The position numbers were made by a program, and so were the translations under genes. Shown here piece after piece: positions 2,713 to 62,655 of a DNA stretch of 64,000 bases; the stretch's first letter is position 1; each line of letters opens with the position of its first letter. This DNA is from Candidatus Nomurabacteria bacterium (lineage in GTDB: Bacteria > Patescibacteriota > Patescibacteriia > UBA1558 > GWA2-36-10). Location: contig JACKFO010000002.1 in the NCBI GenBank assembly GCA_020632415.1, forward strand, positions 642,732-706,731. The letters run 5' to 3'. The notes under the pieces are model-generated. The model did not search any database and was not told the origin of the DNA. It saw only the letters and a list, made by a program, of their open reading frames with translations.

Positions 2713-3669
2713 ATGAATGGTTTTAAATTAGAGCAAATTACGCTTTTTCAAAATTTGAGCAAAAGTGAACTTAAAATTGTCTCTAATTTTTTATTAGAAA
2801 AAAACTATCAAGCTGAAGATAAAATTTTCAAAAAAGATTCTATCCGTGACAAAGTGATCATTATTAAAGATGGCTTAGTGAAATTGCAAACTGAAATTGC
2901 TGACCATCAAGAAATCATCGCCCTCTTCAAAGATGGAGACTTTTTGGGAGAAATGGCTTTTTTAGAAAAAGGCAGTCACCACCAGCATTCTTTAGAAGTT
3001 GCTAGTCCTCGCTTGAGTACTTTGGAATTTTCAGTTTATCACTGGTACAAAATCTTAAAAGAACACCCAGAAATTTCTAGAAAAATTTATCAAAATATTG
3101 CGATTAGTTTAAAAAATCGTTTGGACCATGCAAACAATAAACTAGTCACTCTTTTTGCTTCTGGCCAAATCATTGCCAAGTATGACAACATCGAAGATAT
3201 TAGTCGTCACTTGATCGAAATCATCCAAAAAGTTATTCCTTGTCAAAAAACATTATTTATTACCAGTAGCCAAGGAAATGAAAGGTTCGTTGTCCGACAT
3301 CTAAGTGGCTACAAAAATATCAAGCTGGGAGAAATTTTTAATGCCAACCAAGATCCTCTCTTAGAAGAAATAATGACTAAGGCTGAAACAAAAATATTTC
3401 AAAAAAATACTTGGCCAAAGAATTTTATCAATCTCAAATATGTTAGCAATTCTTTGATTGTCGCTCCAATAAAAATCGCTCGCAAAATAACTGGCTTTAT
3501 TATTTTGGCCGACAAGCTAAATGGTCGAGCATTTAGCATGAACAATCAAATTCTTTTAGAAGCTATTGCTACTCAAATCGCTCCGATTATCGAAGAAGAA
3601 AGATTGTTAAATTTTCAAAACTCTAGCGATGACTTAAAAAGAGTCTATATCGACCCTTTTTCTTCTTAG
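2713..3669 (+). CDS. cyclic-nucleotide-binding (CAP-like) plus GAF-like domain protein, putative regulator
   Basis: N-terminal region with FGEMAFL-type cNMP-binding motif; C-terminal half resembles a GAF domain; immediately downstream of pilT. Confidence 0.4.
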   Translation: MNGFKLEQITLFQNLSKSELKIVSNFLLEKNYQAEDKIFKKDSIRDKVIIIKDGLVKLQTEIADHQEIIALFKDGDFLGEMAFLEKGSHHQHSLEVASPRLSTLEFSVYHWYKILKEHPEISRKIYQNIAISLKNRLDHANNKLVTLFASGQIIAKYDNIEDISRHLIEIIQKVIPCQKTLFITSSQGNERFVVRHLSGYKNIKLGEIFNANQDPLLEEIMTKAETKIFQKNTWPKNFINLKYVSNSLIVAPIKIARKITGFIILADKLNGRAFSMNNQILLEAIATQIAPIIEEERLLNFQNSSDDLKRVYIDPFSS

Positions 3670-3707
3670 TTGATTTCTAGAGACTTTTGTGTTAACTTAT
3701 CTTCTGT

Positions 3708-3782
3708 GCCCTTGTGGTGAAATGGATATCACGCTTGGCTTCGGACCAAGAATTGTGGGTTCGATCCCTGCCGAGGGCACCA
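3708..3782 (+). tRNA. tRNA-Arg (anticodon TCG)
   Basis: Cloverleaf folds by eye: acceptor gcccttg/cgagggc, anticodon stem cttgg/ccaag with loop cttcgga, T-loop ttcgatc, 3' CCA. Confidence 0.75.
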
Positions 3783-3902
3783 GACAGCTTATCGTCAAGC
3801 TGTTTTATTGTCCTTTATTTTATTCCCATTTTCTGCTAAATTAAGGCTATACTTATTCAATTACCAGCAAGACGATACATAAAACATTAACTTTCTAAAA
3901 GG

Positions 3903-4820
3903 ATGAAACTACAATACAAAAAAGAAGAGAAGATCAGACTTGATAAATTCTTAAGCGACAACTTACCAGATCTCACCCGAAGTCAAATTAAAAAACAAAT
4001 TTTAGCTGGTCTTGTTTTGGTTAATGAAAAAAGCTCATCGGTTCATAATTGGCTCAGGAAGGACGATTTGATAGAAATCGTTGAAAAAAACCCAAGCAAT
4101 GTAAAAAAAACAATTCCGAAAAAACTACGTCCAAAAGTACTTGAACAAAACTCCGAATATTTGATTTTAGAAAAACCAGCTGGACTTTTGGTTCATCCAA
4201 CTGAAAAGCTAGAGACTGACACTTTGACTGACTGGCTAAGAGATAATTTTCCAAAGATAAAAAAAGTCGGAGATGACCCAATGCGTCCTGGCATTGTCCA
4301 TCGCTTAGACAAGGATGTTTCTGGCTTAATGGTCATCGCTCTAAATAACGACTCTTTTGATTCTTTAAAAAAACAATTTCAAGAACGAACTGTTAAAAAA
4401 GAATACCTGGCTTTAGTTCATGGCGCAATGAAAGAAGAAGAGGGAGAGATTAATACTCGCCTCGAAAGAGATAAGGAAACGGGCTTGATGAAAGCACAGA
4501 GAACTTTGAAATCTGGAAAAACAGCGATCACAATTTATCGTCTAGAACAAAATTATATTAACTACAGTTTAATTAAGGTCCATATCAAGACTGGACGTAC
4601 TCACCAAATTCGTGCCCATTTATATAGCATTGGGCACTCTATTGTCGGAGACAAACTTTATCAAACCAAAGACATTCGTAAAAAGAAAAAAGGTGTTTCT
4701 GAGGTCAGAATCTTCTTGCATGCTTATTATTTATCTTTTCAAGATTTAAACAAAGCTTGGCAAGAATTCAAATCTCCTCTACCAAAAGAATTAAGAGACT
4801 TTTTAAAAACCATAAAATAA
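3903..4820 (+). CDS. rluD: RluA-family 23S rRNA pseudouridine synthase (RluD-like) with N-terminal S4 domain
   Basis: HRLDKDVSGLMV catalytic motif; 305 aa. Confidence 0.8.
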   Translation: MKLQYKKEEKIRLDKFLSDNLPDLTRSQIKKQILAGLVLVNEKSSSVHNWLRKDDLIEIVEKNPSNVKKTIPKKLRPKVLEQNSEYLILEKPAGLLVHPTEKLETDTLTDWLRDNFPKIKKVGDDPMRPGIVHRLDKDVSGLMVIALNNDSFDSLKKQFQERTVKKEYLALVHGAMKEEEGEINTRLERDKETGLMKAQRTLKSGKTAITIYRLEQNYINYSLIKVHIKTGRTHQIRAHLYSIGHSIVGDKLYQTKDIRKKKKGVSEVRIFLHAYYLSFQDLNKAWQEFKSPLPKELRDFLKTIK

Positions 4821-10562: not shown

Positions 10563-10688
10563 GGGTTCTGGCGATGACCTACTCTCGCAACCCTAAATGG
10601 GTTACTACCATCGGCCTTGAAGAGCTTAACTGCTGAGTTCGAAATGGGATCAGGTGTGGCCTCTCCAGTAGAACCACCAGAACTCTAT
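10563..10688 (-). rRNA. rrf: 5S rRNA
   Basis: Reverse complement reads ...CCGATGGTAGT...GAGAGTAGG..CGCCAG, the conserved 5S helices; lies directly downstream of 23S. Confidence 0.8.
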
Positions 10689-10877
10689 CGTCCTCGAAAA
10701 AATAAATTTATAAATCGAAACATCGTTTCCTAACCTAATACTATTTGATTGATCGGCGTGAATAACATCACGACACCCAATAATAATATCAAGCCAATGA
10801 AAAGTAAAACGATTTTAATCATTTAAACAATGTTTAAGAACAAAAAATTTGTATAAAAATTTCCAAAATTTTTAGTG

Positions 10878-13995
<3,118 letters not shown>

Positions 13996-14395: not shown

Positions 14396-14499
14396 ACCCT
14401 TTTGATAGCTGGGAATTTAGCTTAAATTCTCAATAAAAATCAATAAAAACAAGAGATAATTAAGGGGCTCTGATTTTCATCAAAGCCCGAGTATTTTTT

Positions 14500-14643
14500 T
14501 CAAGTGACTAATCGCCCAATTGAACGCCAAAGCCAAAATGGCAATCGCGATCATGATGGTAGCGAATGGCGGTTGCCACGTCACCAGAATGCCAACGAAA
14601 ACCCAAGCAAGCAATTTGTAATGTCGCCGATTCAACTTAAACA
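14500..14643 (-). CDS. 48-aa hydrophobic peptide in GC-rich island (hypothetical)
   Basis: Minus-strand ORF MFKLNRRHYKLLAWVFVGILVTWQPPFATIMIAIAILALAFNWAISHL with aaggag RBS; not in the ORF track because it is under 60 aa; coordinates hand-counted. Confidence 0.25.
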
Positions 14644-14699
14644 TCTTCTGCTCCTTGTTCTAGACAATGAACTAACTCTTTTATTAAAAGACAAATCTT

Positions 14700-14749
14700 A
14701 TCATCTAATAAAAGAGTCCGAAGTGTCCCTGCTGAGCAGAAACACTTCG
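14700..14749 (-). terminator. hairpin terminator after the GC-rich two-gene module
   Basis: ccgaagtgt...acacttcgg 9-bp stem with nested tgct/agca; T-rich on the minus strand after the stem. Confidence 0.35.
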
Positions 14750-14772
14750 GCACATTGAAGTTGGAGCGCTAG

Positions 14773-14967
14773 TCACCGAAGTCCTCGACAGACCTCGTAG
14801 AACTCACTGAAGCCCTCCTCCAGCAGTTCACTGAAGCTCGGTCCATCGGAACTTCCTCTTCCGACTCGCCTCATGAGTGGATCGCCTCCATTGGCCGTGA
14901 CGTTCTTCCGTGGAGAAGCGGGTGGTTGTGGGTGTTGTGAGTACATCTGTTTCGTGTCCTTGGCCAT
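14773..14967 (-). CDS. 64-aa hypothetical protein (GC-rich island)
   Basis: Internal start MAKDTKQMYSQHP... preceded by ggaggaagg RBS; begins 26 nt after the stop of the 183-aa gene. Confidence 0.35.
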   Translation of the reverse strand: MAKDTKQMYSQHPQPPASPRKNVTANGGDPLMRRVGRGSSDGPSFSELLEEGFSEFYEVCRGLR

Positions 14968-14992
14968 CGTTCCTTCCTCCATGCTGCAAACT

Positions 14993-15544
14993 TCAATCAA
15001 GTAAGCTCGTTTGGGCGACTTGTGCTGACATGTCAACGTTCGCCTTGCGCAAGATGCGTAAAGCAAAACCAGAAACCAACTCCGCACGAGAAGCACCGGT
15101 CAAAGCACAATCAAGCGCTCGACCAATGTCCTCCTTGCTGATCTTTCGATCTAACTCTGGAAACTCTTCGAGGATCCTTCTGATCACTTCGATTAACCTT
15201 TCAGCTTCTTTCTCTGCTTTGCGATAAGCGACTTGTTTCGGTTCATCGGGAATTCCCGCTAAGAACACCCGAACTTCCGCATCGCCAGCTTTGGACAAGT
15301 CAACGTCCAAAGATTGCCCGGCGACTCGGCCTCTCGGAAACTCGATGCCAGCTAGACTTCGCGCTGACGTCAAATCTCCTACGTTACCAAACGCTTGAAC
15401 AAATCCCTCCACTTGCATCATGCGATTCAATCGCGGAAGCAAGTATTCGCTCAAGCGAGTGCCTTTAAAACCAAGCCCCTTGCCTTCGCGAATCAAAGCC
15501 TCAACCTCTGCACGATGAGCTTTTAACCATTCAACGCGTGTCAT
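14993..15544 (-). CDS. 183-aa hypothetical protein (GC-rich island, no recognisable domain)
   Basis: Long ORF in a region of markedly elevated GC; protein composition is plausible (not antisense-like); no family recognised by eye. Confidence 0.5.
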   Translation of the reverse strand: MTRVEWLKAHRAEVEALIREGKGLGFKGTRLSEYLLPRLNRMMQVEGFVQAFGNVGDLTSARSLAGIEFPRGRVAGQSLDVDLSKAGDAEVRVFLAGIPDEPKQVAYRKAEKEAERLIEVIRRILEEFPELDRKISKEDIGRALDCALTGASRAELVSGFALRILRKANVDMSAQVAQTSLLD

Positions 15545-23113: not shown

Positions 23114-23443
23114 ATGAATAAAGATAACAAAAGTTGTTGTACTAACCACGATACCTATTGGTATCATGCTAATAAAATAGGCTTGCTATTTATTTTATTG
23201 TTTGCGATCTGTTTCTTCTGGCCATCATTTCATCCTGCACAATACGGCTTGCACTTACAAATGATGCAAATGACCTTCTTCGGCTTTAGCGGTATGGACT
23301 GGCAAAGTTTTGCTGCCGGCTTAATCCAAGCTTACTTCTGGGCTTACATTTTCGTTATTGTTTGGAAAATCGTTTGCTTAAGCTCCGAATGCTCTTGCAG
23401 CTGTGAAAAAACTGAAACAAAAAAAACTTCTAAGAAAAAATAA
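23114..23443 (+). CDS. hypothetical membrane protein with Cys-rich C-terminus
   Basis: aaaggagc RBS; 2-3 TM; CLSSECSCSCEK. Confidence 0.4.
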   Translation: MNKDNKSCCTNHDTYWYHANKIGLLFILLFAICFFWPSFHPAQYGLHLQMMQMTFFGFSGMDWQSFAAGLIQAYFWAYIFVIVWKIVCLSSECSCSCEKTETKKTSKKK

Positions 23444-26382: not shown

Positions 26383-27861
<1,479 letters not shown>

Positions 27862-28177
27862 AAATAAAGTTTGCACATCTTGCTAAAAGATGTGTTTGGC
27901 TCGAGTTGTTACTCGAAATATGATTGACTTGTCCAAACTTTTAGTTGGACAATAAAATTTAAAAATTGACTTATGGTTTAACTAAAAACGGTTCACTTTT
28001 TAGTTGTCAAATATTTATTTGTCAAAAAACATTGTTTTTCTTGCTTATAGATAGCTTCTAAAGTTCAAGAAAAAACAGCAATGTCCAAAGACCTTAGACA
28101 CTTCTGTTTTTTCTCGGGTGCAACTCCCTTAATTTCTTTGTAAATCAGCTACGACTTTATTTTTTTAATGCTCCCGT

Positions 28178-30381: not shown

Positions 30382-32949
30382 TTAAGCAGCTATTTCATCA
30401 GCTTGATCAAAATTGATTGATAATAAATTTGAAATGCCATCATCGCCCATTGTCACGCCATAGATTATTTTTGCCTTGTGCATCAAAGCACGATTATGAG
30501 TAATGCCAATAAACTGCGTCTTATCAGAAAGCTCGGCTAAAATATCCGCTAAACGAATTGAATTTGCTTCATCCAAAGCTGCATCAACTTCATCCAAAAC
30601 CACAAATGGAGAAGGATTGTTAGCAATAATTGCGCAAATCAAAGCAATCGAGGTCAATGCCTTCTCGCCACCGGAAAGCATATTGATGCCAGAAAGTTTT
30701 TTTCCAGGAGGTGTGGCTAAAATTTCAATTCCATATTGCTTTTTGGTTTTTACTTCTTCTGGGTTATCATCTGAAAGATCGTCTTGATTTTCAGTTGAAG
30801 AATTGTCCAATGAAATTTCTTTGATATCCAAAATTAATTGCGCCCTACCGCCATTAAACAATTTTTTAAAATAACCACTAAACAATTGATTGATGTTTTG
30901 AAAAGCTTCATCAAACTGTTGAGAAATAGTTTCTTCTAAATCTTTAATTACTTTTTCCAAATGTTTAATTGCCTCATTTAAATCAGCAACTTGCGTACTC
31001 AAAAAAACAAAACGTTGATTAACTTCTTCGTACTCTTCTAAGACGCCTTGATCGATGGCGCCAATTTGGCTTAATTGATTTTTCAGGCTACTAATTTTTT
31101 GACGAGCAAGCTCTACTTCTAAATCTGCTGAAAATTTTACTCTGGAAAAACTTTTTGCCTCTTGTAAAATCTCTAGATCTAAATCTTCTTTTTTAGTTTC
31201 GACTTTAGCCATCAAAACTTTCACTTCATTAAGTTCGTTGTTTTTGGAATTAAATTCACTCTGTAATTCTCTAAATCTTTTTTGGTCAGCCAACAAAGAA
31301 GACTTCATTGTTTCTTCTTGCTGATTAAACTCAGCAATTTGCTGAGAAATTTCTACTGACAACTTTTCTTTTTCTTCAATTTTTGCTTCCAACTCTTTCA
31401 GCTGTTGATCAACTACGCTTGCTGATGGATTTGAACCAGCTGTTTGCAAATCACTCTCTATTTTTTTTAAATCATTTTCTGCCTGACTGATCTGCTCTTT
31501 GATTTGTTGCAAACTATGTTCTAAAACCGTTACTTCGGTTTTGGCCGAATTAACCTCGCTAACTAAATTATCTTTTTCTCCTAAAAGTTTATTAAACTCT
31601 AACTGCCAATTAATTTTTTGATCATCTGGACTTTCTTTGATTGAATGCCAAAGTCTTTTGGTATTTTCTTTCAAAGAATCAAAAATATTTCGCAAAGTTC
31701 CTAATTCTTCCAAATTTTTAATCTCAAAAACTTGAGAAAACAAATCATCTTGCGCTTGCACAATTTTTTCTAATTCTTCTGAAATATTTCCTTTAGAAAA
31801 ATTTTGTTGTTCTTGTAATTTTTTTTCTAAATCTTTAAACTGCGCAAGAATAGCTTGCTGTTTATTTTCCAGTTCAGCTAAAACTTCTTTTTTGCTAACT
31901 AATTCTTTATTTTTATCATTCAAAAATAACCTGTTTTTTTGAATGAGGTTAACTAATTCTTGCTGACGATTTTTTAGCCAAACCAAATCTCCTTTTCCTC
32001 CGGATAATAATTTTAAATCAGCCTTAGCTTCCAAAATCGTCTTTTCTTTTAACAAAGAATTTAGTTCATTTTGTTCTTGCTTTAGTTTGTCTTGTAAATT
32101 TTGGAATTTATCCTGCCGGGAATCAGCTTTGCTATGTTTATCCAAGTTGGTCTGCAAGACAACTAACTCTTGATTTAAGCTGCTGACTATTTTTTTTAAA
32201 CGATCGTGCTCACTTTGATTAGAGGCTAAGTCATTTTCTAGGTGGCTCAATAAAAAACTGTAATAATTGTTTTGTAATTCTTGTAATTCTTTTTCTAAGC
32301 CCTCTCTTCTCTCCAATTTATTTACCTGGCGAGTTAAGCTTTTTAAACGAGGCTCCAGTTCAGCTAAAATTTGATCAGTTTGTTCTAAATTTTCTTTTGA
32401 ATGTTCTAGCTTAGAAATTGCTTGATCTTTTTTGATCTGAAATTGTTTAACGCCAGTTGCTTCATCAAAAAACTCTTTTCTTTCAGCAGCAGAAGAAGTT
32501 AAAATCGAATCAATCATTCCCTGACCAATTACGCTGTAAGTCTTTTGACCAAAGTTTGCTTGAGCAAGTAAAAGCTGGACATCTAATAAACGAACTTTGT
32601 TGTTGTTAATCAAATATTCGCTTTCTCCTTTACGATCAATTTTACGAGAAATAATCACTTGTTCATAATCAATGTCCGCTTTACGATCATGATTGTTTAA
32701 ATACAAGTCAACTTGGGCATAACCAAGCTTTCCTTTTTTATCAGATCCCGCAAAAATAACATCATCTGATTTCTTGCCACGTAAAGTTTTGGCACTTTGC
32801 TCACCCAAAACCCAACGCACAGCATCAGCAATATTTGATTTTCCAGAACCGTTTGGTCCGACAATAGCGGTCAGCTCACGATTAAAAACCAGCGTGCTGG
32901 CTCTGGCAAATGATTTAAAACCTTGAATTTCTAGTTTCTCTAAATACAT
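30382..32949 (-). CDS. smc: chromosome segregation protein SMC (short, about 855 aa)
   Basis: N-terminal MYLEKLEIQGFKSF...GPNGSGKSN Walker A; long coiled coil; C-terminal LSGGEKALTSIAL signature and DEVDAALD Walker B; start at internal M29 of the track ORF. Confidence 0.8.
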   Translation of the reverse strand: MYLEKLEIQGFKSFARASTLVFNRELTAIVGPNGSGKSNIADAVRWVLGEQSAKTLRGKKSDDVIFAGSDKKGKLGYAQVDLYLNNHDRKADIDYEQVIISRKIDRKGESEYLINNNKVRLLDVQLLLAQANFGQKTYSVIGQGMIDSILTSSAAERKEFFDEATGVKQFQIKKDQAISKLEHSKENLEQTDQILAELEPRLKSLTRQVNKLERREGLEKELQELQNNYYSFLLSHLENDLASNQSEHDRLKKIVSSLNQELVVLQTNLDKHSKADSRQDKFQNLQDKLKQEQNELNSLLKEKTILEAKADLKLLSGGKGDLVWLKNRQQELVNLIQKNRLFLNDKNKELVSKKEVLAELENKQQAILAQFKDLEKKLQEQQNFSKGNISEELEKIVQAQDDLFSQVFEIKNLEELGTLRNIFDSLKENTKRLWHSIKESPDDQKINWQLEFNKLLGEKDNLVSEVNSAKTEVTVLEHSLQQIKEQISQAENDLKKIESDLQTAGSNPSASVVDQQLKELEAKIEEKEKLSVEISQQIAEFNQQEETMKSSLLADQKRFRELQSEFNSKNNELNEVKVLMAKVETKKEDLDLEILQEAKSFSRVKFSADLEVELARQKISSLKNQLSQIGAIDQGVLEEYEEVNQRFVFLSTQVADLNEAIKHLEKVIKDLEETISQQFDEAFQNINQLFSGYFKKLFNGGRAQLILDIKEISLDNSSTENQDDLSDDNPEEVKTKKQYGIEILATPPGKKLSGINMLSGGEKALTSIALICAIIANNPSPFVVLDEVDAALDEANSIRLADILAELSDKTQFIGITHNRALMHKAKIIYGVTMGDDGISNLLSINFDQADEIAA

Positions 32950-33040
32950 AGTGCAATTAAAAATAATCGCCAAAAGCAAATCCGCCTCTGGCGGAAAAAC
33001 TATTGATATTTTATCACATTTTCTTTTCTTCAACCAGTTT

Positions 33041-33086
33041 TAAAACAAAAAGAAAAATCGCTCAGTTCACAAAGGACACTGAGCGA
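33041..33086 (-). terminator. intrinsic terminator on the minus strand, immediately upstream of smc
   Basis: atcgctcagt/actgagcgat 10-bp stem; on the minus strand it is followed by tttttctttttgtttt. Confidence 0.45.
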
Positions 33087-33640
33087 TCGCAGCAGTTGTG
33101 CCGATCCACGGGGACCGGTCCGCCAAAACACCCAGTCGGGTGGTAGTGGCCAAAGGTAGCGGAAGGCGGCGCGGGGTTGAACGAATTCAGACTCGTCAAA
33201 ACGCGAACGAGAAGCCTCGCACCTCACCTTTGCAGTCGCGTCAACAGCCCGCAAGGCCTCTCGTGTTTACCACGAAATAGGAGGTTCCAATGGCATCGAA
33301 CGGTTGTGCGCCACCTTCCGCATTTTCTTTTCTTGCTAAAGAGCCAAGAAGACTTATTTAGTATAAGATCAGAAAAGAAAATTGTCAAATATATATTTAA
33401 ACAAAAGAAAAACTGCCCAGTTCTCAAGGAACTCTGGGCAGCTTGGGGGGCCTCTTTCGAGGCGTCGTCGCAGCAGCAGAAAGCCGGGGCACAGGGAGCG
33501 TCACACACACAGGTCGGTAGGAAGTTATCTGGAAAAGTCCAGGCGGACTTTTGGCTGCAAAATAAGGAAGGAGCACAAAATCATTATCAAAATACACGAA
33601 AACAATTATTTTGTCAAGACCAACAAAAAACTCATCTGTC
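33087..33640 (-). ncRNA. GC-rich, ORF-poor region: candidate structured RNA gene(s) of unknown class
   Basis: G+C far above flanks; only overlapping, biased-composition ORFs on both strands; bounded by three minus-strand intrinsic terminators (33041-86, 33398-440, 33641-79). Confidence 0.25.
33398..33440 (-). terminator. intrinsic terminator on the minus strand inside the GC-rich island
   Basis: ctgcccag/ctgggcag 8-bp stem followed on the minus strand by tttttcttttgttt. Confidence 0.4.
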
Positions 33641-33679
33641 CAAATAAAAAACATTCCGCCAAAGTCAGACTTTGGCGGA
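33641..33679 (-). terminator. intrinsic terminator on the minus strand downstream of rnc
   Basis: ttccgccaaag/ctttggcggaa 11-bp stem followed on the minus strand by tgttttttattt. Confidence 0.45.
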
Positions 33680-33774
33680 ACGGAGCGCTCTCAAAAACCA
33701 TTACGGTAAGTAGATCCGGATCTGGCCTCTGGGCAGCTACACAATCATTTGAGTAAAAGAGCTATTATCTAAGT

Positions 33775-34476
33775 TTATTTATCTTCCCAGCCTTTTTTCA
33801 ACAAGCCTTTAGCAGCAGCATCAGTTTGCGCTTCCTGTTTACTAAAACCTTCGCCTTCAGCTACTAATTCTTTTTCTAAATAAACTCCGACAATAAATCT
33901 CTTATTATGATCTGGTCCTGATTCAGCAATCACTCGATAATTTGGTGTGATTCCGACTAACTCTTGAGCCTTTTCTTGAAAATTAGTTTTTGGATCAATA
34001 TATGATTTCTCTTCGATGATTTTTTCTAAATTAACAATCAAATTTTCTCTGATAAACTTTTCTGCTGTTTTATATCCTTGATCTAAATAGATTGCTCCCA
34101 CTACCGCTTCAAAAGTGTTGGCCAAAATATAGCTACGAGCTTTTTTATTTTTATCGCGAGCCTCTCCCCGACTCATATGAAGCCAACGATATAAGTCTAA
34201 ATTTTCTGAAGCGGCGGCAAGTTGATCACGATTTACTAAACTCGAGCGCCAATTAGTCAAAACACCCTCTGCTTCTTGAAAATTTTTATACAAATAATCA
34301 GTAACAACTAATTCTAGCACTGCGTCACCTAAAAATTCTAAACGCTCATTATGATCTAGGGCAAAGTTTTTATGTTCATTTAAATAAGATCTATGCACCA
34401 AAGCAGATTTTAAAAAGTCACGGTTCTTAAAAGTGACTTTTAGTTTCTCTTCCAAATCTTTCAAATTCTTCTCCAT
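33775..34476 (-). CDS. rnc: ribonuclease III
   Basis: ERLEFLGDAVLELVV RNase III signature; C-terminal dsRBD. Confidence 0.85.
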   Translation of the reverse strand: MEKNLKDLEEKLKVTFKNRDFLKSALVHRSYLNEHKNFALDHNERLEFLGDAVLELVVTDYLYKNFQEAEGVLTNWRSSLVNRDQLAAASENLDLYRWLHMSRGEARDKNKKARSYILANTFEAVVGAIYLDQGYKTAEKFIRENLIVNLEKIIEEKSYIDPKTNFQEKAQELVGITPNYRVIAESGPDHNKRFIVGVYLEKELVAEGEGFSKQEAQTDAAAKGLLKKGWEDK

Positions 34477-34482
34477 AAAAAA

Positions 34483-35346
34483 TTATTCTAAACCCAACTT
34501 CTTTAGTCCTAGATTAAAAATGTCATGAGCATTTTCATAACCTAATATTTTTTTTGCCTCTTCTTTGGAAAACCACTTTACGTCTTGTAATTCATTGACT
34601 TTCGGAACAGTTAGCTCGGTTTGATTGGTAAAAATCAAAAAATATTTAATCATTTTACGATAAGGGGTTTCATTTGGCTTATGTACTTTGACCTGTGTTT
34701 CTCCTAAATAATCGATGATTTCTAAGTTGTGTAAACCAGTTTCTTCTTCTAATTCTCTGACCGCAGCATCTTCTAAACTTTCGCCTTGTTCAACATGTCC
34801 TTTTGGAAAAGTCCACTTGCCATAAGCATCTAAAATCAAAACAAAATAATAACCATCGTCACTTTTGCGATAAATCAAACCACCAGCAGAAACTTCTTTG
34901 ATTCCTTGTTCTTCTAGATTTTGTTTTTCGCCATTTTGAGACATCTCTTTGTAGATACTACCTAAAACTCCGTTAACAAATTTACCAGATGAATCACCAC
35001 CAAAAGCTTTGGCTAGCTCTATTGCTTCGTTGATTGCTACTTTTGGTGGAATTTCCAAACTCATTTTCAATTCATAGATTCCGATCCGCAAAACATTACG
35101 ATCAACAATCGTGATTTGATCCAATGGCCATTCAGGAGCAAATTTTTTAATCAAAGCATCAAGCTCATTTTTTTTAGCAACAACTTGTTTTACCAACTCA
35201 TCAGCAAAACCCTGATCATCAAAATCAGGAGCAAACTCATCGTGATTTTTATGCAAAATCTCAGAAGGAACTGCGTTGCCCTCTTTAAAATCCCATTCAA
35301 ATAATGATTGTAAGGCTAAAGTTCGAGCTAAATGTCGATTGGCCAT
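34483..35346 (-). CDS. nusB: NusB antitermination factor fused to a C-terminal NUDIX hydrolase domain
   Basis: N-terminus MANRHLARTLALQSLFEWDF is NusB-like; C-terminus has NUDIX box GHVEQGESLEDAAVRELEEETGL. Confidence 0.65.
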   Translation of the reverse strand: MANRHLARTLALQSLFEWDFKEGNAVPSEILHKNHDEFAPDFDDQGFADELVKQVVAKKNELDALIKKFAPEWPLDQITIVDRNVLRIGIYELKMSLEIPPKVAINEAIELAKAFGGDSSGKFVNGVLGSIYKEMSQNGEKQNLEEQGIKEVSAGGLIYRKSDDGYYFVLILDAYGKWTFPKGHVEQGESLEDAAVRELEEETGLHNLEIIDYLGETQVKVHKPNETPYRKMIKYFLIFTNQTELTVPKVNELQDVKWFSKEEAKKILGYENAHDIFNLGLKKLGLE

Positions 35347-39125: not shown

Positions 39126-39154
39126 TTGACAAAATTTATAATTTATCCTATTAT
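39126..39154 (+). promoter_or_regulatory. sigma70-like promoter (TTGACA-17-TATTAT) upstream of the GC-rich membrane gene
   Basis: ttgaca aaatttataatttatcc tattat. Confidence 0.35.
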
Positions 39155-39193
39155 AAATTAATTTTGCACATCTTCAAACTCAAGGAGAATCCG

Positions 39194-39769
39194 GTGGAAA
39201 ACCTCTTCTTTTTCCTAGATTGGAAGCTCTTGTTTGCTTCCTTCATCCTGAACACACTGGCCATCTGCGCCATGTTGATCGTCCAGTGGTGCGAAAGCAC
39301 TTCAGGAGTGATCAGACCAAGACACCACATAATCCCCAGCACCAAGCAGAAGTTCCTCTACTGGCAGGACTTCTACTGCCAAAAGTGGGGTAACGTCTGG
39401 GGCATGCCTCTGATGCTCTACCCTACGATGTTCCTTTACAAGTACAACTGCCTAGATTCCTGGTCGCTCTTGTTCGCGTTGCTGGCAATTCTTGCCACCA
39501 GAGCATTCTTCAAAGAATGCACAAAGAAGACACATAAGCCGGATTGGGGCTACCCCAAGCCAGGAGAACACAGCTTCAGCGGAACACTCCACTTGACCTA
39601 CTTTGGGTTTTATATCTTTGTCGTGATCACCTCGATCTATTCCATGATCAGAGGCTACCTGGTCCGAGAAGAAATCTTCGTTTTCTTCCTCGGTGCGACG
39701 ATCTACATCGCAACCTGGGTCAAAGACGTCAGGTCTGGTAACTTCGCCAAACTGGAGAAAATCCATTGA
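39194..39769 (+). CDS. 191-aa polytopic membrane protein in GC-rich island (hypothetical, GTG start)
   Basis: aaggag RBS 6 nt before the GTG at 39194 (in frame with the track ORF 39020..39769); 4-5 TM; Cys/Trp/His rich; no family recognised. Confidence 0.45.
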   Translation: MENLFFFLDWKLLFASFILNTLAICAMLIVQWCESTSGVIRPRHHIIPSTKQKFLYWQDFYCQKWGNVWGMPLMLYPTMFLYKYNCLDSWSLLFALLAILATRAFFKECTKKTHKPDWGYPKPGEHSFSGTLHLTYFGFYIFVVITSIYSMIRGYLVREEIFVFFLGATIYIATWVKDVRSGNFAKLEKIH

Positions 39770-39843
39770 AAACCCTCCGTTTCCTGAATCAGCTCTGGGG
39801 CTGGTTCAGTCATGGCGAGCTTCACTGGTAAGCTCAGCTCCTC

Positions 39844-39880
39844 CCTCTGCGTACGCGAGCACGCAGAGGGATTTTTTTTA
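39844..39880 (+). terminator. GC-rich intrinsic terminator
   Basis: ccctctgcgt/acgcagaggg 10-bp stem followed by atttttttta. Confidence 0.5.
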
Positions 39881-45342: not shown

Positions 45343-45371
45343 TTGACAAAATATATATTATGTGATATAAT
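45343..45371 (+). promoter_or_regulatory. consensus sigma70 promoter (TTGACA-17-TATAAT) upstream of the GC-rich 315-aa gene
   Basis: ttgaca aaatatatattatgtga tataat. Confidence 0.45.
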
Positions 45372-45448
45372 TGTATATTGGCCGATTCACTACGAATTAG
45401 CCAACAGCTCCTTGCAACTTATAACTTTTTGCAGAAGGGATTGAAATC

Positions 45449-46396
45449 ATGACCGCCAACCATCATCCTTCCCTCCCGACCGCCGAAGAAATCAGCCACC
45501 ACTGCGTCGCGGCAGCCTACAAGGCAGTCGGCAAGGGCAACCCCTGGCGCAATGCTGCCTGGCATGCCCTGCAGGACTACGCCACCGAGCATCACGGCTA
45601 CGACCGCGATGACCGGTGGCAGACCGCCCAGCTGCGTCGACGCTTCTATGCCACGGCCAACTGCGGTTCCCCCGAGAACATGCTCAAGACCAAGATCCGC
45701 CAGCTGAACCTCGGGGGGCTGACCATGAGCCAGGCTCTGGCAACGCTCTATCACGATCCGCTTCTCGACCTGATCGATGGTGAAGGCCACTTCTGGCTCA
45801 ACAAGCTGAGTGAGGAAGAGGGTCTGAACTGGGCCGAACCGCACACCAAGAACCAACTGAAGCAGCTCGCCCCCAAGAAAGCCTCGCCGAGACCGCTTTC
45901 GCCTCAACGACGCTTTGTGCTCCGAATCAAGGAACTGCAGGACGATCTCGACCTCAGTCGACGAGAAGCCTACAAGAAGATCCATGCCGAATTCGCAGGT
46001 GAACTCGAGCGGGATCGCGGGCTCTTCATGACGCACTGGCCTTTCGACGAAGAAGAGCTTTCGGCCCTGGTCACGATGTTCGAAGAAGACACCAACAAGA
46101 TCCCGAAGCTCCACCGCCGCGAACTCTTCGGCTTCCTGATCACCGAGCAGATCACCGATCCGGGTGATCCGCGCGAGATGCAGAAGTTTGTAGAGACCTT
46201 CCTCAAGGTCAGTCCACTGCCGCTGGACGAGCTGAAAGCCGAGATCGAGAAAGGCTACCGAATCGCTGGCTTCAATCGTCCCTATGTGAGGGCTCAAGTG
46301 GAAAAAAGCTTCCGCGATCGGCTGCTCCCAGGCGAATTCGATCACGTCTTCGACAAGATCTGGCGTGACTGCGTCACGCTCGGACTCACTGGCTAG
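45449..46396 (+). CDS. 315-aa hypothetical soluble protein in GC-rich island
   Basis: aaggga RBS; protein has normal composition while the opposite-strand ORF (45419..46345) has antisense-like Leu/Val/Gly/Arg bias; followed by a strong terminator; no family recognised. Confidence 0.55.
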   Translation: MTANHHPSLPTAEEISHHCVAAAYKAVGKGNPWRNAAWHALQDYATEHHGYDRDDRWQTAQLRRRFYATANCGSPENMLKTKIRQLNLGGLTMSQALATLYHDPLLDLIDGEGHFWLNKLSEEEGLNWAEPHTKNQLKQLAPKKASPRPLSPQRRFVLRIKELQDDLDLSRREAYKKIHAEFAGELERDRGLFMTHWPFDEEELSALVTMFEEDTNKIPKLHRRELFGFLITEQITDPGDPREMQKFVETFLKVSPLPLDELKAEIEKGYRIAGFNRPYVRAQVEKSFRDRLLPGEFDHVFDKIWRDCVTLGLTG

Positions 46397-46408
46397 CTTC
46401 CTCCTGCT

Positions 46409-46464
46409 GCCCGCTCACTGCAAGCAAACCTTGTGTTTGTCTTGCGATGAGCGGGCTTTTTTTA
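46409..46464 (+). terminator. GC-rich intrinsic terminator
   Basis: gcccgctca...tgagcgggc with inner gcaag/cttgc, then ttttttta. Confidence 0.5.
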
Positions 46465-46530
46465 TTTGACAAAATAATTTAAAAATTCTAAGCTTTTCTA
46501 AATTGCACGCCAGCAGTTTTTGGAGGAAAA

Positions 46531-46653
46531 ATGCTAGAACAAGTCAGGCTCTACATCGACCAACACTTGGGACAATTCCTGCCAGTCTTGCTGATGCTCT
46601 CTCTTCCTTTGATCGCCGTGATCAGAAACAAAATAAGGCGGAAGAAAGCTTAG
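46531..46653 (+). CDS. 40-aa hydrophobic peptide (hypothetical)
   Basis: ggagga RBS 6 nt upstream; MLEQVRLYIDQHLGQFLPVLLMLSLPLIAVIRNKIRRKKA; followed by its own terminator. Confidence 0.25.
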   Translation: MLEQVRLYIDQHLGQFLPVLLMLSLPLIAVIRNKIRRKKA

Positions 46654-46661
46654 ATCCCCAC

Positions 46662-46690
46662 GCAGCCACCTTGAGCGGCTGCTTTTTTTA
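46662..46690 (+). terminator. intrinsic terminator
   Basis: gcagcc...ggctgc stem followed by tttttttatttt. Confidence 0.4.
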
Positions 46691-50286: not shown

Positions 50287-50315
50287 TTGACAAAATACTC
50301 TAAATATGCTAATAT
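50287..50315 (+). promoter_or_regulatory. sigma70-like promoter (TTGACA-17-TAATAT)
   Basis: ttgaca aaatactctaaatatgc taatat. Confidence 0.4.
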
Positions 50316-50361
50316 AATAAGAATCTGTACAAAAGCAAACAACAAAGAAGGAGGAGCAAAA

Positions 50362-50703
50362 ATGCTCGCCTACAAAAAAACTCACGTCAAATTGACACTT
50401 TTGAGCATTGTGATTGTCGCTGCCCTGATCTGGCTGGCGATCAAGAATCAGCACGTGGTTTCGTACTTCTCACCTCTCTGGAGTGAAAACCCGAACATCG
50501 CCGATTGGTTTCACAGCTTCTGGTTCTGGGTTTTCGCCATAATCCTCTACGTCTTTAGCTGGGGAATAGTTTCCTTGCCTTTTTCGAAGAATTTCGAAGG
50601 AAACACACTTGGTTTTCTGCTCATTGGAATTCTCTGGGCCATAATCTATTTTCCCCTAGCAATCAAGGCCTGGAACTGGCTAGTTCCTCACTTCGTCTGG
50701 TAA
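50362..50703 (+). CDS. 113-aa membrane protein in GC-elevated island (hypothetical)
   Basis: aaggagga RBS 7 nt upstream of the ATG at 50362 (in frame with the track ORF 50287..50703); 3 TM; Trp/Phe rich. Confidence 0.45.
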   Translation: MLAYKKTHVKLTLLSIVIVAALIWLAIKNQHVVSYFSPLWSENPNIADWFHSFWFWVFAIILYVFSWGIVSLPFSKNFEGNTLGFLLIGILWAIIYFPLAIKAWNWLVPHFVW

Positions 50704-61765: not shown

Positions 61766-61800
61766 AGAAAGCCGGCGCGTGGAATGCGTCGGCTTTTGAC
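61766..61800. terminator. bidirectional GC-rich terminator
   Basis: aagccggcgcgtggaatgcgtcggctt flanked by A-run and tttt, between convergent genes. Confidence 0.4.
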
Positions 61801-61818
61801 GATCAAGGTCGTCACCAC

Positions 61819-62325
61819 TCATTTCTTCTGGAAGGGATTGCGGAATGGTCCGTCTCCTTCCGTGTCACCGTGAAAAAGTTTGAGGTAGTGGTGATGCAGT
61901 AGATCACCCAAGATGCAGCTGAGACCAACTGCGATCAAGAGGCGATCTAGTTGCCAATTGGTTACTTCAGCGAAGAAACCAACAACGACCATTAAAGCTC
62001 CCCAGTGAGCATGGTGAATGCCTATGCGTCGTCCCTTGTGAACGATGTACAAGCGCTCATTTTTTCCCTGCTTACCAAAGACATAGCGAAAGAGTAACAT
62101 TGTGGCCTCTTGGAAGACGATTGTTCCCAAGAGAAACCAAAGAAACTCAATGTTGGTCATGGTCTGGAAGAAGCTGATCAGTTGTTCGAACTTGAGGTTG
62201 GAAATTTCTCGAGAGTTTTCCCAGCTATTGGTCCAGAGCCAACTCATCCAGTAGAAACTGAGCAGAAGCAAAAAACTTGTAATCAGGAGAAAAAGTCCTT
62301 TGCTAGGCTTGCTTTGCGTTTGCAT
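61819..62325 (-). CDS. 168-aa membrane protein in GC-elevated island (hypothetical)
   Basis: 4 TM; His-rich loop GIHHAHWG and LLHHHYLKLFHGD; GC clearly above the flanks. Confidence 0.45.
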   Translation of the reverse strand: MQTQSKPSKGLFLLITSFLLLLSFYWMSWLWTNSWENSREISNLKFEQLISFFQTMTNIEFLWFLLGTIVFQEATMLLFRYVFGKQGKNERLYIVHKGRRIGIHHAHWGALMVVVGFFAEVTNWQLDRLLIAVGLSCILGDLLHHHYLKLFHGDTEGDGPFRNPFQKK

Positions 62326-62655
62326 GGCAATAATCCTTTTGTCTTTAGATGGAAGTTTAGTAGCAAAATGTGAAGGATCGAATGATTAATATTAACATAT
62401 ATTTAATATTTTGTCAAGCACATGGTATTAAATTTCGGGTTTTTATCAGCAAAACAGCTTTTTATTTTTAATTTTAGCTAAAAAATGTGGATAACTTGAG
62501 GGTAAATCACCTCTTCTGGGGATTAGTTTGGCTGATCTTAGGTGAAAAAGCTTGAAAATTTGACAAAGCTAGAAATAGCTATCTCATAAAATTTAGCTAA
62601 TATTAGATAAGATAATTAAAAAAGAGCGACTTTTAAACTTTTTATGAAAGTCTTC

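Follow-up and report, generated by a model that had tools for sequence, protein, structure and literature searches.

In Streptococcus, the Cia-dependent small RNAs (sRNAs) csRNA1-5 form a CiaR-box regulon in which RNAs of about 90-150 nt with two simple hairpins use CCUCC-like pyrimidine stretches to pair with Shine-Dalgarno (SD) sequences or ribosome-binding sites (RBSs), with no obvious chaperone and in Firmicutes that are rich in SD sequences. LhrC1-5 of Listeria monocytogenes and RsaE/RoxS of the Firmicutes are RNAs of about 100 nt, well conserved across species, whose C/U-rich UCCC or CCCC seeds lie in loops and unpaired stretches and bind SD regions in a subset of mRNAs, and the GC-rich intergenic region (GC-IGR) approach of the Breaker laboratory finds orphan structured RNAs as GC-rich intergenic regions in AT-rich genomes. 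For the Patescibacteria or candidate phyla radiation (CPR), which have tiny genomes and few recognisable regulators, our full-text literature searches found no description of regulatory sRNAs or anti-SD RNAs. We here analyse a stretch of 64,000 nt from a Candidatus Nomurabacteria bacterium (contig JACKFO010000002.1, positions 642,732 to 706,731; the whole stretch is referred to as the window, and coordinates are window positions), in which an island at 33034-33774 separates the RNase III gene rnc from smc. Very probably, this island comprises two genuine, independently transcribed, non-coding and structured sRNAs, termed U1 and U2, that represent a new lineage-specific group. As to function, our preference, held tentatively and at somewhat less than even confidence, is that U1 and U2 are paralogous sRNA genes whose products act in trans as accessory anti-RBS RNAs. 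The status of U1 and U2 as sRNA genes is well supported, and the anti-RBS mechanism is what we infer.

On the minus strand, the island has the order rnc, terminator, promoter P1, U1, terminator, promoter P2, U2, terminator, smc promoter, leader hairpin, and smc. The intrinsic terminator of rnc (33642-33682, terminator scan) consists of a 14-bp stem (33682-33652) followed by UUUUUUAUUU. The promoter scan gave P1 at 33589-33617 (TTGACA-17-TATTTT, 10/12) and P2 at 33360-33388 (TTGACA-17-TATACT, 11/12), both of which match TTGACA-17-TAnnnT perfectly. Bounded by P1 and its terminator, U1 has about 180 nt (33403-33582), with the 5' end predicted 7 nt after the -10 box, give or take a few nucleotides, and the 3' end inside the U run; U2, bounded by P2 and its terminator, has about 306 nt (33048-33353). 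The U1 terminator (33399-33442, RNAfold) has an interrupted stem of 11+3 bp, and because of this interruption it was overlooked by the consensus scanner. The U2 terminator (33042-33087, RNAfold and our own scan) has a 12-bp stem followed by UUUUUCUUUUU, with CAACUGCUGCGA in front of it (33098-33087). Between 32500 and 34300, seven terminator-like sites were counted, as compared to 1.5 +/- 1.1 in shuffled sequences. Each RNA thus has a strong sigma-70-type promoter at its predicted start and an intrinsic terminator at its end. The terminators of U1 and U2 form a 37-nt direct repeat of 78% identity (U2 copy at 33048-33084) that is also detected by blastn, and as paralogous terminators occur in the window and at the loci L081 and L091 (L numbers denote loci outside the window), the units arise by local duplication. 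Across 14 gaps, those of relatives and that of the window, TTGACA with a 17-bp spacing is perfect in 24 of 26 promoter-pattern matches, and every lineage that bears a unit has kept its promoters and terminators intact. The initial annotation had already proposed a GC-rich island between rnc and smc that lacks open reading frames (ORFs), with three minus-strand terminators, a TTGACA-17-TATTTT element, and two consecutive sRNAs of about 170 and 300 nt. All of these elements were found, including the three terminators and the element at 33617-33589, and the GC content is 0.474 in 33034-33774 versus a whole-window mean of 0.366; the second and better promoter at 33388-33360 had been missed, and with it each of the two sRNAs has its own promoter and terminator, with predicted lengths close to those proposed there. 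Only 2.9% of the non-rRNA 740-bp windows have a GC content as high as the island, and the remaining ones are GC-rich ORF cassettes.

The ORFs of the island are not credible: as the initial annotation had noted, they only overlap each other, and they mostly have TTG or GTG starts and cross the promoters and terminators. A coding frame conserved in relatives was not found, as tblastn with all local ORFs against the same gap of relatives gave no match. The longest sense ORFs are no longer than those of dinucleotide shuffles (40.9 vs 44.1 aa), and a 41-aa ORF of L166_U1 shrinks to 12 aa in the 85-88% identical orthologue L167_U1. The marks of a stand-alone gene, namely an own promoter, a Rho-independent terminator, and no coding capacity, are therefore present in both U1 and U2. 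These data bear on two further ideas. In one, the units would be coding and give rise to small proteins or type I toxins, such as a leaderless MILCSFLILQPKVRLDFSR in U1; in the other, they would be mobile inverted-repeat elements that resemble miniature inverted-repeat transposable elements. There is indeed a short hydrophobic ORF at the predicted 5' end of U1, and the 14-bp inverted repeats resemble terminal inverted repeats, but no ORF is common to the orthologues, the ORF lengths are those expected from shuffling, and each unit is single-copy, with no second copy in the window or in the 192 loci examined. The inverted repeats differ between lineages at one chromosomal site, which argues for vertical inheritance and against mobility. 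A scan of viral contigs with an 18-base conserved pattern gave 16 matches. Of these, 15 are clearly homologous to one another and stem from GC-rich phages of one or two related groups, and the sixteenth (L192) lies in a different context; none of them has the promoter-RNA-terminator architecture, and they are therefore read as chance matches to an 18-mer. We consider a peptide-coding or mobile nature of the units to be very improbable.

It is equally improbable that the island acts in cis, as a structured leader or attenuator of smc or as elements of the rnc 3' untranslated region (UTR). Its position between rnc and smc, the use of a single strand throughout, a terminator-like hairpin in the smc leader, and a perfect 14-nt repeat that connects the start of the U2 body with the smc promoter region could point in this direction. 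Against it stand the strong rnc terminator before P1, the own terminator at the end of each unit, the lack of any riboswitch family match, and the promoter of smc itself. This extended -10 promoter, TGTGATAAAAT (33008-33018, read from the sequence), lies downstream of the last terminator, and a TATG(A/C/G)TAAAAT box is found 3' of the last terminator in relatives and is kept also in relatives without any RNA unit, where the box is identical and the gap between rnc and smc is only 64-118 bp. Hence smc has its own promoter further downstream, and the RNAs are not smc leaders.

A GC peak in an AT-rich genome need not mean a housekeeping RNA, and this holds for the present locus. The initial annotation had suggested that the larger RNA could be RNase P RNA, transfer-messenger RNA (tmRNA) or 6S RNA, and this proposal had to be rejected on the basis of Rfam, ARAGORN, fast divergence, and patchy presence. 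At the gathering score, Rfam 15 found only rRNAs and tRNAs in the whole window and no match in the island, and in 31 related loci it found tRNAs only. The families that had been named for such a scan (RNaseP_bact_a/b, tmRNA, 6S, and signal recognition particle (SRP) RNA) gave no match even at E<=10; at this threshold there was no RNase P, tmRNA, 6S, SRP or riboswitch family in 32900-33900, but only meaningless snoRNA, miRNA and CrcZ fragments. In the case of RNase P RNA, both RNaseP_bact_a/b matches and the P4 motifs CR-I (GAGGAAAGUCC) and CR-V (ACAGAA..GGCUUA) are absent from the minus-strand transcript, and a lone GGAAAAGUCC string sits on the strand that is not transcribed. RNase P RNA is moreover essential and expected to evolve slowly. 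The units, by contrast, defy alignment between genomes whose Rnc proteins are 75-87% identical, and the gap of six close relatives lacks them, a result that speaks for this locus alone, as a gene can lie elsewhere in other genomes. ARAGORN detected no tmRNA in the window, and a tRNA-like 3' end was not seen on the transcribed strand. The predicted folds are multi-branched and not rods with a central bubble as in 6S RNA, and for SRP RNA, the candidate string GCGGAAGG is unable to form a helix-8 hairpin with its flanks, and there is no GNRA/symmetric-loop SRP domain. Size, GC richness, strong promoter and strong structure would all be compatible with a very divergent housekeeping RNA (RNase P, tmRNA, 6S/Ms1-like or SRP) that escapes Rfam, and CPR RNAs can be atypical, as illustrated by the 23S rRNA of the window, which exceeds the model by about 200 nt. 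In view of the combined negative results, this explanation is largely refuted and appears exceedingly unlikely. Fast divergence, patchy presence and variable copy number instead fit better to an accessory RNA.

Rnc homologues led us to 80 distant loci, 80 metagenome loci and individual contigs. Close relatives, with 68-87% identical Rnc, keep the order VanW-L32-NusB/NUDIX-rnc-gap-smc, with a gap of 64 to about 1580 bp. Together with the window, 14 lineages carry one to three promoter-RNA-terminator units of 135-340 nt in this gap (window, L081, L082/83, L087, L084/85/101, L088/169, L099, L090, L102/103, L091, L166, L167, L168, and L175/176), and six lineages have a minimal gap without any unit (L086, L089, L093, L094/95, L170-172, and P0014). 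In the 80 distant loci (Rnc <=64% identical), rnc mostly abuts the next gene, and nhmmer with U1 and U2 found no match. The sRNA group is lineage-specific, accessory and fast-evolving, and it occupies the rnc-smc gap of a Nomurabacteria subclade in zero to three copies. Between genomes with 75-87% identical Rnc, blastn and nhmmer can hardly align the units, and they link only near relatives, plus a few patches of 18-21 nt: U2 shares GAUCGGnnCAACUGCUGCGA with L169_U1, AAAAUGCGGAAGGUGG with L168_U1, and CGACUGGGUGUUUUGGCG with L099, while U1 shares CUUUCYGCUGCUGCGACG with L166_U1. By blastn, U2 thus has orthologous patches in L169/L088_U1, L168_U1 and L099, and the CAACUGCUGCGA module is common to U2 and L169_U1; U1 is orthologous to L166_U1 and L167_U1 via the common CUGCUGCGACG module. 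Where orthologues can be aligned, the rates differ between parts. Between L166 and L167, the third codon positions of rnc are 70% identical, as compared to 85% for U1 and 70% for U2. Conservation in this U2 is seen in the 5' box, both strands of the helix and the terminator, with a scrambled sequence in the interior. Between L082 and L087, the third positions are 76%, U1 82% and U2 86% identical. Between L088 and L169, rnc is 98.7% and U1 99.7% identical, and U2 (locus about 3619-3860) is only 82% identical with 30 gap positions; it has a hypervariable segment, in that its 3' half has been remodelled with a hairpin kept through a compensatory change. Some parts of the units are hence constrained and others turn over at or above the neutral rate; U1-type and L082-type units, with 82-86% conservation, exceed the 70-76% at third codon positions of rnc. 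As observations on the same gap, about 340-nt units of L090 (about 3313-3656) and L102 (about 3081-3420) fold extremely well, with z-scores of -7.5 and -9.3. As they lack an Rfam match and do not detectably resemble U1 or U2, they may represent novel structured RNAs of a separate kind.

For U2, RNAfold gives a minimum free energy (MFE) of -122 to -125 kcal/mol with a z-score of -4.2 to -4.4, and none of 100 shuffles was as stable; for U1, z is -2.0 to -2.2, which is marginal over shuffles. Across 27 units of the 14 lineages, the mean z is -4.2, terminators included. A comparison of the longest G.U-tolerant helix with shuffles was noisy, since U-rich tails yield long G.U/A.U helices in the shuffles. 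MFE and centroid structures of both RNAs are multi-branched, and the units have a common anatomy, consisting of an unpaired 5' leader with a CU box, a long G-rich/C-rich closing helix around a variable domain (in U2 and most related units, not in U1), and a terminator hairpin. In U1, the 5' CU box GUGCUCCUUCCUU (33564-33576) is predicted to be single-stranded (P(unpaired) 0.94) and is followed by a hairpin CCAAAAGUCC-GCCU-GGACUUUUCC (33531-33554, MFE and centroid), at the equivalent position of which L166_U1 and L167_U1 have a hairpin of other sequence. A conserved module of U1 (33450-33479), CUGCUGCUGCGACGAC plus a GAAA-tetraloop hairpin GCCUC-GAAA-GAGGC, is common to L166_U1 and L167_U1, where the counterpart is GCUGCGACG-CCC-GAAA-GGGC, and CTGCTGCGA occurs four times in the units versus 0.0 expected. 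In U2, the purine-rich 5' strand GCGGAAGGUGGCGC (33308-33321, inverted repeat I7) pairs with the pyrimidine-rich 3' strand GCGCCGCCUUCCGC (33159-33172) to form a closing helix of 14 consecutive pairs, 11 of them G-C, and the helix motif is found at these two window sites only. Its lone wobble is G.U on the minus-strand transcript and would be C.A on the other strand, which supports a minus-strand transcript. In most related units, a long-range helix of this kind, with purines dominating the 5' and pyrimidines the 3' strand, is built from unlike sequences and has a length of 12-18 bp (L081_U2 14, L082_U2 18, L102_U1 14, L175 14, and L167_U2 16). As to covariation and conserved structure, which had been proposed as checks, the RNAs are more stable than shuffled sequences, with a clear difference in U2 and a marginal one in U1, and clean compensatory changes at unambiguously aligned sites are few. 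One is a UA to CG change in GCUUCC-GCUA-GGAAGC (L088) versus GCUCCC-GCUA-GGGAGC (L169), another an AU to GC change in the U2 closing helix between window and L169, and the hairpin GCGCGC/GCGCGC of L166 has two C-G to U-A changes in L167 (GUGUGC/GCACAC). MAFFT and RNAalifold gave poor alignments of orthologue trios and MAFFT misaligned the latter hairpin, and the units were too divergent and too few for MAFFT-based covariance-model seeds.

These conservation data have to be weighed against the view that the units are decaying or non-functional remnants of GC-rich orphan cassettes, transcribed without any function at the RNA level. The window has at least five GC-rich cassettes with similar TTGACA-17 promoters and hairpin terminators and without a Pfam match, two of them have a CU box in the 5' UTR, and units are patchily present with U2-type interiors that evolve at about the neutral rate or faster. 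In addition, a GC-rich protein ORF lies within the rnc-smc gap of L102 and L091. However, intact promoters and terminators in every lineage, long-range helices that are kept in unlike sequences and by compensatory changes, the strongly negative mean folding score, U1-type units that are more conserved than synonymous sites, and the lack of any residual ORF signal all speak against decay, and we regard this explanation as quite unlikely. The ORFs in the gap are an observation in their own right: they are encoded on the reverse strand (L102 about 2190-2950, L091 about 3790-4510), are flanked by sRNA-like units, and have a signal-peptide-like N-terminus, such as MKRSLFTIISIITITLLPRLTLAEIP. This makes the gap a hotspot at which GC-rich cassettes insert.

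Two sequence elements of the units suggest how such RNAs could act. The first is the CU box, with a hand-derived consensus of about UUYG-N0-3-YCCUUY, which a loose regular expression, used with no background control, located in 21 of 27 units at a distance of 7-20 nt from their predicted 5' ends; the first 20 nt have a P(unpaired) of 0.65 versus 0.39 for the rest of the units (Wilcoxon p=5e-6). The second is a putatively exposed ACCUCC motif that resembles the 16S rRNA 3' tail; U2 has it, as do about a third of the remaining units, and U1-type units lack it. ACCUCC is found nine times in the units versus 1.8 expected, and CACCUCC six times versus 0.6, frequencies that were reached in none of 500 shuffles, although these p-values are optimistic, since some units share a recent ancestry and do not count as independent. 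The units do not contain GGAGGU, and ACCUCC has therefore no perfect internal partner. In U2, the motif is UGGAACCUCCUAUUUC (33274-33289), as compared to UGGAUCACCUCCUUUC of the 16S tail; the 16S 3' end of the genome is GGAUGGAUCACCUCCUUUCU, with the canonical tail CACCUCCUUUCU at the 26383 end. None of 1000 permutations of the 16S tail matched the units as well as its actual 16-mer, with which 10 of 23 units have at least 7 nt in common. Beyond U2, such motifs are AUGGAACCUCCUU in L169_U1, GGACUCACCUCC in L081_U2, CACCUCCUUU in L166_U2, and CCUCCUUUCU in L091_U2.

Potential targets of pyrimidine boxes are distributed unevenly in the window. Among 48 long (core) genes, GGAG or GAGG was found between -20 and -4 in only three, no more than the background frequency, and the core genes of the window are effectively SD-less. 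In contrast to these, about six of eight GC-rich cassette genes have strong SDs by hand reading, which was not scored, such as AAGGAG or GGAGGA, strong SDs are also present in a few small genes, and GGAGCA is carried by four of about ten SD-led genes. The cassettes, which have a GC content of 0.45-0.61 and no Pfam match, are at 14480-15544(-), 39126-39880(+), 45343-46465(+), 46466-46690(+), 50287-50703(+), and 61770-62417(-). A hairpin terminator closes each of them, and for most the promoter scan gave a perfect TTGACA-17-TAnnnT match, with none listed for 14480-15544. A 315-aa cassette protein (ORF 45449-46396) has a single homologue, with 58% identity, among 5.8 billion proteins. SD-led starts that we compared with core starts are 23114, 14644, 50362, 46532, 39194, and 15544, and candidate origins of the cassettes are foreign, de novo or host-derived. 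In a test on 11 hand-picked start regions of this one 64-kb window, the CU box of U1 is complementary to the SD-led start regions with p=0.004 versus shuffled boxes of matched composition, which exceeds the own complementarity of the 16S tail, and the U2 motif reached p=0.10, which is not significant. This seed-complementarity test replaced a full-length RNAduplex target scan, which was discarded because of unrealistic long-loop duplexes. One candidate pairing is a 9-nt match of U1, GUGCUCCUU/AAGGAGCAC, over the RBS AAAGGAGCAC of the gene at 23114-23443(+), which encodes a 109-aa Cys-rich membrane protein and is SD-led in surroundings of ordinary GC content, and an 8-nt match, at AAGGAGCA, was seen at the gene 14480-14644(-) for a 54-aa membrane peptide.

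We therefore tentatively propose a model in which the exposed pyrimidine boxes would pair in trans with purine-rich RBSs, and the RNAs would thereby repress translation or alter the stability of the SD-led gene set. As core genes lack SDs, only a minority of genes, mostly GC-rich orphan accessory ones, would offer SD-type sites, and the RNAs would spare the core genes. Several points weigh against this model. The 5' ends of U1 and U2 are predictions, and with 180-340 nt and heavy structure, the RNAs are larger than typical anti-RBS sRNAs. The CU box has a near-fixed distance from the -10 box and is also found in the 5' UTRs of two protein cassettes, and it could be a DNA-level or transcription-start-proximal element instead of an RNA seed. 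About half of the predicted ensemble has the ACCUCC motif of U2 in paired form (P(unpaired) 0.45), and the statistics suffer from the mentioned relatedness of units, the hand-picked start regions, and the non-significant result for U2. Covariation rests on few sequences, and the closing helices of window and L169 can be aligned in two registers with one double change (MAFFT) or four to five, the latter being a count that we do not rely on, as L169 has a duplicated GCGG that renders the register ambiguous. Finally, U2-type interiors at or above the neutral proxy fit weak constraint as well as diversifying selection.

In a bolder reading, set in a bacterium whose core genes have lost SDs and whose 16S rRNA retains a canonical anti-SD tail, the fast-diversifying RNAs, with their copies of the 16S tail (GGA-N-CACCUCC(UUU)) and a helix that resembles an SD:anti-SD duplex, would act as mimics of the 16S 3' end. 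Such mimics could compete with the ribosome for SD-led GC-rich orphan or foreign genes, which would amount to an RNA gating of accessory genes, or they could titrate proteins or other factors with affinity for this end. Under this view, an arms race or diversifying selection would account for the hypervariable interior of U2 (82% identity at 98.7% identical rnc). We consider such mimicry rather unlikely. A related explanation is that one or both RNAs are decoys for a protein or the ribosome and not regulators of mRNAs, in that GGA(N)CACCUCC and the AAGGUGG/CCACCUU helix mimic the 16S tail or the SD:anti-SD duplex, or that the helix is an RNase III substrate; Era, KsgA, YbeY, other 3'-end RNases, and bS21 are examples of factors that could be titrated. 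The Era KH domain binds GAUCACCUCC at the 16S 3' end, and in E. coli the era gene comes directly behind rnc. In the island, the genes for U1 and U2 follow directly after rnc, and the 16S resemblance extends beyond CCUCC, as seen in UGGA-ACCUCCU-UUUC of U2 and AUGGA-ACCUCCUU of L169_U1 versus AUGGAUCACCUCCUUUC of 16S rRNA, in the mentioned L081_U2 motif, and in 10-nt identities to the 16S tail in L166_U2 and L091_U2. The purine-rich 5' and pyrimidine-rich 3' helix strands are kept in most lineages, and a general anti-SD regulator would have few targets because core genes lack SDs. However, the gap does not encode a protein partner, the position of the motif varies from the 5' side in U2 to the 3' side in L169_U1, U1-type units lack the 16S-like motif altogether, the helices, at 12-18 bp, are short as substrates of RNase III, and the patchy presence disfavours a core role in ribosome biogenesis. 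A decoy function is in our view improbable, and the anti-RBS model continues to be the one that we prefer.

Read along the minus strand, the gene order runs from a VanW-like gene through a NusB-NUDIX fusion to rnc and the island, and then on to smc, S16, TrmD, and 16S rRNA. The upstream flank rnc (33775-34476, Pfam Ribonucleas_3_3 3.8e-38, dsrm 1.7e-13) encodes a product that is 100% identical to the database protein 'ribonuclease III [Candidatus Nomurabacteria bacterium]', and the downstream flank smc (30382-32949, Pfam SMC_N 1e-61) starts with ATG at 32949. In the smc 5' leader, the terminator scan detected a terminator-like hairpin (32968-32994) with a U run, which sits downstream of the own promoter of smc and is 79% similar to the rnc terminator over 19 nt. 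Comparable hairpins with U runs were seen by eye just upstream of smc in L099, L090, L170 and L169, and this suggests that the hairpin is a possible attenuator. The perfect 14-nt direct repeat, AAGAAAAGAAAAUG on the minus strand, is found at 33017-33030, directly upstream of the smc -10 box, and at 33321-33334, directly 5' of the U2 closing helix; the two copies bracket the about 290-nt U2 body and terminator, and further copies were not found. The repeat could be an insertion or duplication scar in the smc promoter region, or low-complexity chance. Upstream of rnc, the fusion of NusB to a NUDIX hydrolase domain (287 aa, 34483-35346(-)) is kept in all close relatives. The rRNA genes are unlinked (23S 10873-13994, 16S 26383-27867, 5S 10566-10681), with protein genes and GC-rich cassettes in the 12 kb between 16S and 23S, and the 23S match of 3122 nt versus a 2925-nt model suggests an insertion; unlinked rRNA genes and a longer 23S rRNA are typical of CPR genomes.

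In summary, the locus offers a concrete pair of sRNA genes with defined promoters, terminators and candidate seeds, and a series of about 14 lineages in which gain, duplication, remodelling and loss can be followed at one chromosomal hotspot. The window also has a two-class landscape of translation initiation, with core genes without SD and GC-rich orphan cassettes with SD, and if the link between the RNAs and SD sites is true, the retained anti-SD tail and the RNAs gain a specific regulatory role. No homology to any described anti-RBS family was found by Rfam, and the likeness to known systems is functional and architectural only. U1 and U2 are GC-rich, highly structured and about 180-300 nt long like 6S/Ms1 RNA, but 6S RNA is a near-universal and slowly evolving rod made up of a closing stem, a central bubble and a terminal stem, whereas U1 and U2 are multi-branched and missing from the same gap in close relatives. 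As in the motifs found by the GC-IGR approach, a long, GC-rich and ORF-free intergenic region coincides with strong predicted structure; those motifs rest on many covarying representatives, as compared to about 14 lineages and a handful of clean compensatory pairs here. The tandem arrangement in one intergenic region, in several lineages as multiple copies, and the candidate C/U-rich motifs toward SD regions recall LhrC, of which LhrC1-4 are in tandem, but unlike in LhrC and RsaE, the sequence is nearly unalignable at 80% identical flanking proteins and the copy number varies from zero to three. In comparison with csRNA1-5, the units are longer (135-340 nt), have a long closing helix and no Rfam match, and act, if they do, among core genes without SD; what they have in common with csRNA1-5 is that there are several paralogous sRNAs, each with a strong promoter and an intrinsic terminator, whose pyrimidine stretches would be exposed and may pair with SD sequences.

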